Shown here: positions 1-3,500 of the stretch, in pieces
Layout of the letters: each line of letters starts with the position of its first letter
Position numbering within the stretch: position 1 is the stretch's first letter
Assembly: GCF_033153115.1 (NCBI RefSeq)
Contig: NW_026889761.1
Span: 13,826,001-13,890,000 of the forward strand
DNA length: 64,000 bases
Source of the DNA: Saccostrea echinata
Taxonomy: Eukaryota
Direction of reading: 5' to 3'
The notes under the pieces: model-generated
The model's input: the letters and a program-made list of their open reading frames with translations, nothing else
Database searches by the model: none
Told to the model about the DNA's origin: nothing
Program-made: the position numbers and the translations under genes

Positions 1-537
1 GATAAGTAGCAAAAATCAAATACTGTGTCCTGGTTCACTGATAAATCTAACAAAATCAATTACTGTGTCCTGGTTCACTGATAAATCTAACAAAATCAAC
101 TACTGTACCCTTGTTCACTGATATATCTAACAAAATCAACTACTGTACCCTGGTTCACTGATAAATCTAACAAAATCAACTACTGTACCCTGGTTCACTG
201 ATAAATCTAACAAAATCAAATACTGTACCCTGGTTCACTGATAAATCTAACAAAATCAACTACTGTACCCTTGTTCACTGATATATCTAACAAAATCAAC
301 TACTGTACCCTGGTTCACTGATAAATCTAACAAAATCAACTACTGTACCCTGGTTCACTGATATATCTAACAAAATCAACTACTGTACCCTGGTTCACTG
401 ATAAATCTAACAAAATCAAATACTGTACCCTGGTTCACTGATAAATCTAACAAAATCAACTACTGTACCCTGGTTCACTGATATATCTAACAAAATCAAA
501 TACTGTACCCTGGTTCACTGATAAATCTAACAAAATC
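1..537. repeat. 40-bp tandem repeat (13 units plus a partial one) derived from an astacin exon 3' end and its splice donor
   Basis: Unit TACTGTACCCTGGTTCACTGATAAATCTAACAAAATCAAC starts at 21, 61, 101 ... 501. The reverse complement of the last unit is the end of the 509-629 exon (DFVRFISEPG) plus GTACAGT. Confidence 0.95.
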
Positions 538-3500
538 CGGGTTCTTCTTCCTCTTCTTTTTGAATACTATACATGTCTTATTGGATATATGCTCCATTGC
601 CCTCTTTGCCGCTTTTCTGGCTGACCTAGCTGATGAATAAAAATCTTATAATTAAAGTGTTAATTAAAAAATGAAATGAAAGAAAAACAGACTAAATCTA
701 TCAGTATTGTTGACATATTTATTGTAGTACATAAGTACATTATCCTATTTTACAAAGCTGTATAGTAATCACCAACCAACGGTAACTGATATGGTTTTTT
801 TTTCAAATATATTTTTGAATTTTACAAGGAAAAACTGGTCTGTCTTCCTAGAGAAAAATAATAAAAGTTGTGTTTTTAACATTATTTTCAGATATCTTGA
901 AAATGTTTTTTCTTTTACAAAAATAAATAAGACTTTGCATTTTGAAATGATTCTTTTTTATGAAAATTTGTCAAAGCGAAAATATTAGTATTTTATCACA
1001 GTAATATATTTACTGGTGTTCTTTTAAATGTTTTGTTTTGAAGCATATTTTAAACCATAAATTTTTCAAACAATTAATAGAAAGGTTCACTTTTAAAAAC
1101 TATGCATGCATTATCATATATGACATATCTTATAAAATTAATATTAAATATCAAATAAAATTTGAACACAAAAGATAATTTGACATTTATAATGACAATG
1201 GCAATATTGAAATTGGACACTCTTTTATCAATAAATAGCCCTTTAAAATGAAAGAGGTGATTCAAAATTATACACAAAAGAGACCAAGACATCCAGTTTC
1301 TATTTAAAATGTTTTAAACGATAATAAATTATCAAAATTAATAGGACGTGAAGTGAGAGGTGAAAGATAAGGTAAGTCTTAATTTCATTGTGTAAAAATA
1401 GGTTGACTTAACTGCGTCAATCTTAAATTAAACCTCCTCAGCGCAGAAATCATATACATATCAATGATAAAAAAAAGTTTGAAAGTTATTTTCAAAAACG
1501 GAGAAAATGGCTTTAAGTCGATAATTACACAAACATATTTACTTTCTTCTCCTCCAATGAGTGAAATTCATTGAAAACTACAAGGAATGTTGTCGATATA
1601 TGAGATACATAGACTTTTCTATCCGAAATAAAAGTGAGAAAGAGAGAAAGAACTCACAAAGTGATGGCGCAAATTGATAGTACATTATCCCATCTTTCCA
1701 TAACCGATCTTTCATTCGGGTTGTCGCTCGTTTTCGACGTCTCCCAACAGGTCCATACATCATGTCTGCAGCCTTTTCATCAAGGACGATGTCACCATTG
1801 TAAAAAGCACTGTCACCTGAAAGTTTTCGGGCCCAAAATTATGCATTTTATCCACGTCATGCCTACAGTCCACCTTCATATATTATATACAATAAATATG
1901 AACACATTATTTTTTTTCTTAAAGATAAAGCTTAGTCTTGAGTGTATATCTTACGCTTGAAACTAATCGGTGGTCTTTAGTGAGTAAAATGGTAACTTAC
2001 CAGTGCCTCTGGGCTTCACACGTTTATTTTCTCTCATAAAGCATAATGAGGGCGGGCATATATCTGAAATTGATTTTAAAATATTCTTTATGATTCCTTC
2101 GATCATTTCTAGGCAAAAAAAGTGAATGCCATAAGATCTTTAAATGTAAAATATTTTCCACAATGACGCAGGAAGTAAAAAATTGTTCTACATTCAATCA
2201 CGGGATAAAACAATGTCATTCAGTTAAATGTACGGAGACTGAAAGTTAATGAAAGGTGACTGAATGGCAGAGCTCTGTCATTCAGTCACCTTTCAGTGAA
2301 CAGTCGGTGTACTGGATAGCGCATAATCATCCACTGAATATTTTTATTCTTAGAAACGAAAGCTTGCAGTAGTAATGTAAATTTTGGAAGTTGGAAGTGT
2401 AATAAACAATATGTATGGAAAACAACACATTTTTGCCAAGAAAGAAATGAATTATATAGATCAATGCTTAATGTTTTATAAATAAATTGATAATTTTTAT
2501 CTTCTTGATATAAGAGGCTAGATGAAGTTTAAACAACATTGACTTGTGAATGAAATTCTCAAGATGTTTTATCGTGCTACGGTCAGTATAATCAAGGTAA
2601 TGCAAGGTTAGTTGGATCATCTGTTGAAATCCAACGTGACCCTTAGAAATGTAAAAGATACAATATATTTCATTCAGTTATCTATCTATAAGGTTTTCGA
2701 TACTTGAAAAGGATTGGATAGATAAGCTTATTTTATAACTTTTGAAGTCGATATTTGAAGAATGTGAAATTATTATATTACGATGTCAATACATAATTAC
2801 TGTTTAATTGCTAAATATTGTTGAAGAATTCAACAACTGCAGACCTTTTTTTTTTTTTTCAATTTATTGTTCATCGAAGTAGACATGTATTTATTTGAAA
2901 ACATTGATACAAAAAACAAACCATGTACAATGATTTGCTGTGTGTTAAAAATGCAATCTCGCACTTACGGTTTCTAATTGGTAGAAAGATAAACATATCG
3001 ACAGATTACACTAACAGAGAAAATGTTCTATAATGAATGCCTTTTTACTGCACAGCGATAAACCGTCTGAGGCTTAGCGGGAATCCTTTTCTGCAAAGTC
3101 GATCGTCTTAAATGAACTACCTATGTACAAAGTCTATAGAATCTTTTTCATTGATAACCCAAGAATGTAAATACCAAACGTTGCAAAATTTTAGTAGGTT
3201 GAATAAGGTTTAAATCGCAGTCAAGTACGGAATCTACACGTACCGCGTTAAAGTAACCCGAAAAGCTACCCTCATTGATTATATATACTTAATGGGACAC
3301 AGTGTCATCTAGAAGTCACTTCTGCGATTTTTGAGAAAATTAACATTAACTAGGGAAAAAATGCAAAGATTTAAAAAAAAACTTTTAGTTTACATTCCAT
3401 ACATAACTACTTACGACTGTTGACCTGCCAGAAATCCCAGTATTTGGCGCGCTTTCTGATGACATTGATGACGATTTTGGCCGTGGGCATTTCTCCTTTC

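Follow-up and report, generated by a model that had tools for sequence, protein, structure and literature searches.

A junction-spanning minisatellite in an oyster astacin gene, probably born by slippage and nearly neutral for splicing

How does a gene choose its splice donor when the border between an exon and an intron has been copied, donor included, again and again into the intron itself? This question is raised by an intron of LOC133185975 in the oyster Saccostrea echinata. The window, by which we mean the whole stretch of 64,000 nucleotides that was analysed, holds the first four coding exons of the gene near its start, and five further exons lie beyond the window start:

3415 to 3592, minus strand: coding exon 1, with a hydrophobic N-terminus, likely a signal peptide
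2001 to 2063, minus strand: exon 2
1658 to 1816, minus strand: exon 3, with the propeptide end, a basic cleavage site and the start of the astacin domain
509 to 629, minus strand: exon 4 (astacin), 121 nt long, which starts in phase 1 and ends in phase 2
500 to 508, minus strand: authentic donor of intron 4, which pairs poorly with U1 in the standard register

A nine-exon model that uses the donor at 508 translates letter for letter to the 579-residue RefSeq protein, the RefSeq gene model, labelled Saccostrea echinata, being itself a prediction. Intron 4 measures 1783 nt and ends past the window start, and the phase of exon 4 fits that of exon 5. Pfam recognises astacin, C-type lectin and kringle domains, with the Astacin family found in exon 4 (E 2.4e-4) and exon 5 (E 5e-17). 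Astacins (M12A) are marked by the zinc motif HExxHxxGxxH and the Met-turn SxMHY; both are present in the 579-residue protein, which together with the PF01400 matches (E 5e-17 and 2e-16) places it among the astacin metalloproteases. The fourth position of the zinc motif is Asn in both Saccostrea proteins and Gly in Crassostrea, and the LOC133185975 protein is overall 17 residues shorter than its S. cucullata orthologue. A paralogue or pseudogene was ruled out by the single genomic match of exon 4 and the open 579-residue frame. The exon 4/5 junction is colinear in 12 of 17 aligned proteins (LOC133185975, S. cucullata, C. virginica and nine derived from Logan), the remaining five being fragments that do not reach it; these orthologues and the RefSeq model fit the donor at 508, although orthologue proteins are uninformative on array-bearing alleles. 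Elsewhere in the gene, beyond the window start, the 86-nt intron 6 (L009:6158-6244) is of the GC-AG type, its junction is used in the RefSeq model and an RNA contig bridges it. Two Crassostrea-cluster proteins read through the intron 6 point with Ala next, suggesting that its GC donor is conserved.

The repeat itself is laid out as follows:

12 to 537, minus strand: 40-bp minisatellite, of which unit 1 (537-498) covers the exon 4/intron 4 border
98 to 497, minus strand: units 2-11, with ten GT-bearing pseudo-donors, from 468 down to 108
18 to 97, minus strand: units 12-13, with AC in place of GT at 68 and 28
1 to 17, minus strand: unique intron sequence after the array, in which the unit's first 6 bases recur exactly and about 17 imperfectly

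TRF describes 12-537 as a repeat of period 40 with 13.1 copies, 95% matches and 0% indels. Each unit, read on the minus strand, joins the last 29 nt of exon 4 to the first 11 nt of intron 4, so that the junction-derived unit of the original prediction is confirmed. The genuine donor at 508 is indeed followed by GT copies at 40-bp spacing, at 468, 428, 388, 348, 308, 268, 228, 188, 148 and 108, and the loss of GT from the two most distal copies was also read correctly. A pattern search of the 923-Mb genome for the exon-derived portion of the unit returned 13 matches, all at the array (control, 0). Since the unit is found nowhere else, the repeat was made in place, and an origin from a dispersed repeat or transposon is ruled out. 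The array thus has the features of the junction-spanning or 'mirage' minisatellites: head-to-tail units within 10-100 bp (here 40 bp x 13.1), a terminal unit lying on the authentic border, a donor reiterated in the intron and a local origin.

What did not hold was the proposed gradient of divergence away from the exon. Units do not become significantly more distant from unit 1 along the array (Spearman rho 0.38, p 0.23), and what trend there is vanishes once the two GT>AC columns are left out (rho -0.13, p 0.69). Only 5 of the 40 columns of the unit alignment vary, and the six unit types follow one another as a shuffled mosaic, A B A C B C D A C C D E F, with units 3 and 8 repeating unit 1 base for base. 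With no rise with position, a mosaic order and a GT>AC replacement best read as one change common to both edge units, we reject the gradient. The same pattern bears on whether the array could be an assembly artefact. Its 526 bp lie within a 25-Mb contig, six unit types come in a non-monotonous order without indels, and like arrays occur at other genes of the genome; all of this makes an artefact most improbable.

The GT>AC replacement consists of two transitions, hits both invariant donor bases and occurs only in the units that border unique intron sequence. A micro-inversion is unsupported, the flanks read from the sequence being without inverted repeats. That donor G and T should both be among the five variable columns has a chance of 1.3%, a figure calculated post hoc, and hints that a rival second donor was once selected against. 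Taken further, this would mean a young, mildly harmful expansion, in which GT>AC disabled an early second donor and the GT-bearing unit expanded recently and is as yet unpurged; that units 1-11 differ from each other by at most 3 bases would suit such a history. It nevertheless rests on one event judged post hoc, and the edge units of tandem arrays are described as escaping homogenisation (PMC3087553), which alone would explain distinct end units. We regard this history as improbable, if somewhat less so than an artefact, and it would be compatible with the explanation that we favour, provided that the cost of the array is tiny.

Our preferred explanation, which we hold to be likely, is that the array is a locus-specific junction minisatellite, born by slippage and near-neutral, in which splicing picks the most upstream donor. 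The first 40-bp duplication may have been seeded by the match between exon and intron lying 40 bases apart, 6 bp long when exact and about 17 bp when imperfect. The likeness of the unique intron sequence at window positions 1 to 17 (minus strand) to the unit is likely this seed microhomology or, alternatively, a decayed 14th unit. An exact match of at least 6 bp at 40-bp spacing was present at 162 of 13,100 sampled positions (1.2%). Further growth would have proceeded by slippage or unequal exchange, shuffling four or five point variants among the units.

The consequence of using any later donor depends on a stop codon just behind the genuine one:

496 to 498, minus strand: TGA, in frame for any extension of exon 4 past 508, giving a product of 177 aa

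All 12 later unit positions, when taken as donor, lead to the same 177-aa product, whereas the donor at 508 gives the full 579-aa protein. In the 177-aa products five junctions lie downstream of the stop, and a stop with downstream junctions is expected to elicit NMD. It had been proposed that the extra donors all sit behind an in-frame stop; this stands for simple extension of the exon, which runs into the TGA at 498-496, and fails for the AG...GT cassettes within each unit, 18 and 9 nt long, as the frame would stay open if they were included as micro-exons. Their insertion site would adjoin the conserved cysteine of the catalytic domain. Truncation itself calls for no special arrangement. 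Stop triplets fall at positions 9, 21 and 40 of the unit, whose length is not a multiple of three; when its intron part was shuffled, all ten donors still truncated in 2000 of 2000 shuffles. Because truncation is automatic with a 40-nt unit, the premature stop was not designed. Most latent intronic donors are reported to lie behind stops (PMC1524910, PMC3510495). When truncated products of LOC133185975 were sought, in a weak test, 3 matches were obtained among 37 candidates, 0 of them ending in the read-through peptide.

Pairing of the donors with U1 was computed with a U1 sequence from the same genome. The donor at 508 is predicted to pair with +4 bulged, at -8.2 kcal/mol. This register, which is defined by the lack of G at +5 and by a stronger predicted pairing when +4 is bulged, has been listed for 652 human sites (PMC4856993, Table 3). 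The same energy is predicted for units 3 and 8 as for unit 1, the other eight GT copies reach -7.8 kcal/mol and the two AC copies fall to -3.5/-3.9, while the other donors of LOC133185975 range from -3.3 to -9.1. Given that the pseudo-donors are about as good as 508 in predicted U1 pairing, the choice of donor must rest on position. Masking of the pseudo-donors by RNA structure was rejected, as 378-629 shows no unusual fold (z 0.89), with 165 of 200 shuffled versions folding equally well. Just past the array, a single-copy donor-like site at L009:7906 (window -94) has a stronger predicted U1 pairing than 508, at -9.3 kcal/mol, and is a latent site behind the same TGA. The U1 snRNA genes stand in long tandem arrays with a spacing of about 2.15 kb (C29:39326426-39348009, C159 and C313; 42 matches scored).

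We suggest that exon definition or 5'-to-3' scanning would commit the transcript to 508 first, by extension from human F7 and from amphioxus; the evidence for scanning comes from mammalian cells throughout. If 468 or 428 were now and then chosen, NMD would remove the transcripts, at a small cost in mRNA and with no tuned control. Such leakage is plausible, given two pseudo-donor units (3 and 8) that match unit 1 in every base and a genuine donor that is weak in the standard register. The contigs of one RNA run (share 0.06 for window positions 1-700) were placed on the gene. They bridge introns 5, 6, 7 and 8, showing that the gene is spliced there. For intron 4, no exon 4/exon 5 joint occurs among the listed contig joints of this run, and one contig has 11 letters ahead of exon 5. 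With that contig set aside, the summed contig depth is 11-12 over the initial 19 nt of exon 5 and 11.7 over the final 39 nt of exon 4. Such a match would be expected from contigs that join the two exons at 508, though this evidence is indirect. Array units 5-13 are without contig cover, no record fitting two places, in a data type in which contigs drop rare forms and from an animal that may lack the array.

The main competitor of this explanation is a leaky ladder of donors, or VNTR splice-QTL, in which pseudo-donors take a sizeable share of the transcripts, these are lost to NMD, and the amount of protease is tuned through the number or order of units. The ten GT copies of near-equal predicted U1 pairing and the junctions downstream of the stop would provide its parts, two extra donors are reported in use in human CBS and 6-16, and a paper on the CBS VNTR reports lower enzyme activity in its title (both via PMC1557585). 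Furthermore, human tandem repeats linked to splicing are given as 9537 (PMC10078293), so that a rheostat would be no new kind of element. Against it, the stop is automatic, we saw neither a gradient nor a conserved design, and the five human cases are described as using the first one to three donors at any array length (PMC1557585). With use limited in this way, copy number above about three should not matter. A copy-number rheostat is thus conceivable but unsupported, and we judge it unlikely. The original prediction had left open either such a rheostat or neutral slippage that splicing tolerates; the latter is the best reading, and the former is disfavoured by the automatic stop, the missing gradient and the exclusive use of the most upstream donor in F7. 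By analogy with the reports on CBS and 6-16, a small effect of leakage may still exist.

To place the locus in its genome, we took an unbiased sample of 40 evenly spaced 10-kb tiles (400 kb) from two contigs and retained arrays with a TRF period of 15-200, at least 5 copies and at least 85% matches. Of the 13 arrays recovered, four lie on apparent exon borders; flanks were read for 7 of the 13, and the other 6, satellite- or transposon-like (146-167 bp, or 22-bp AT-rich), were counted as misses. The border arrays are the following:

L016, 5364-5666 and 6188-7279: exon-border arrays, one at an acceptor and one at a donor
L014, about 6030-6978 and 9001-10000: exon-border arrays

For L016, tblastn with a Sec7-family protein derived from transcripts confirmed that both the acceptor array and the donor array lie at exon ends. 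One donor array of L014 follows an EF-hand exon (Pfam E 5.8e-6, under the Pfam cut-off), and the second was judged on appearance alone; Pfam returned no family for 4 of the 5 sampled exons. The four border arrays belong to two unrelated genes and occupy 2 of the 40 tiles (95% interval 0.6-17%), or some 560-15,600 tiles genome-wide. Assuming 300,000-700,000 splice sites, about 2-4% of arrays would start on a border by chance, and the presence of border arrays in 2 of 9 array-bearing tiles then has a p of 0.009-0.043, a value that depends on these assumed site numbers and on a small, clustered sample. This suggests that minisatellites are enriched at splice junctions in the oyster genome. Short repeats of an exon end also occur at L016 726-925. 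Within the window, tandem units of 146-157 bp with flanking GTCT microsatellites are found at 31730-32116 and 42442-43339, an arrangement that we take to be typical of bivalve non-autonomous transposons. In a six-frame scan, a GC-richer region at about 60000-63000 on the plus strand shows retrotransposon-like reading frames.

The single locus matters little, its class having been described in human and amphioxus and appearing common in the oyster genome. It does offer a natural setting in a non-mammalian animal for asking whether splicing favours the first of many identical donors, the two dead copies serving as controls. Exon-border arrays as a large share of oyster minisatellites are the more worthwhile lead: if the enrichment at borders extends genome-wide, it would reveal a bias in the origin or survival of minisatellites and bear on intron gain. 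A bolder scenario combines these elements, with thousands of oyster minisatellites biased to exon borders, a weak bulge-register donor that here lets the copies compete, array length or unit order tuning mRNA through NMD, and the 18-nt cassette as a ready in-frame micro-exon on the way to exon or intron birth. We think this combination unlikely.

Among known junction-spanning systems, human F7 and amphioxus speak for the preferred reading of near-neutral slippage. A search of mainly open-access literature found no report of a mollusc junction-spanning minisatellite, and the systems at hand come from human and amphioxus. The 37-bp VNTR of F7 intron 7, the best-studied case of the class, resembles the oyster array in that the first unit lies on the exon/intron border, the donor is reiterated, unit length is similar and the gene encodes a secreted protease. 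F7 has four to eight identical pseudo-donors, which are functional, yet experiments with 50 constructs are reported to show exclusive use of the most upstream donor (Borensztajn et al. 2006, PMC1557585). The F7 unit has 4 exon and 33 intron bases and occurs in 5-9 copies, compared with 29 + 11 and 13 copies in the oyster, and its polymorphism and the silence of its pseudo-donors are experimental findings, whereas the oyster array is known from its sequence. Closest in anatomy is the 31-bp VNTR of CBS intron 13, c.1444_1467+7(16_21), present in 16-21 copies, the unit of which is mostly exon end, 24 + 7 by its variant name (PMC2630376); there, two pseudo-donors are reported in use (PMC1557585). 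The minisatellites of 6-16 (IFI6), LMNB2 and PDGF likewise span a junction and reiterate a donor, 10-25 times, with the two nearest pseudo-donors used in 6-16 and only the authentic donor in LMNB2 and PDGF (PMC1557585). Like the oyster array, the amphioxus 'mirages' of Adh3 and the globins BflGb6/BflGb9 are found in an invertebrate, repeat exon-intron borders in tandem, often with the splice signals intact, and have diverged edge units (PMC3087553). Their length instability is demonstrated in amphioxus, and they are reported to leave regular splicing without interference and are proposed as a route to new exons and introns (PMC3087553). The oyster array is a further case of this class, known from human and amphioxus.
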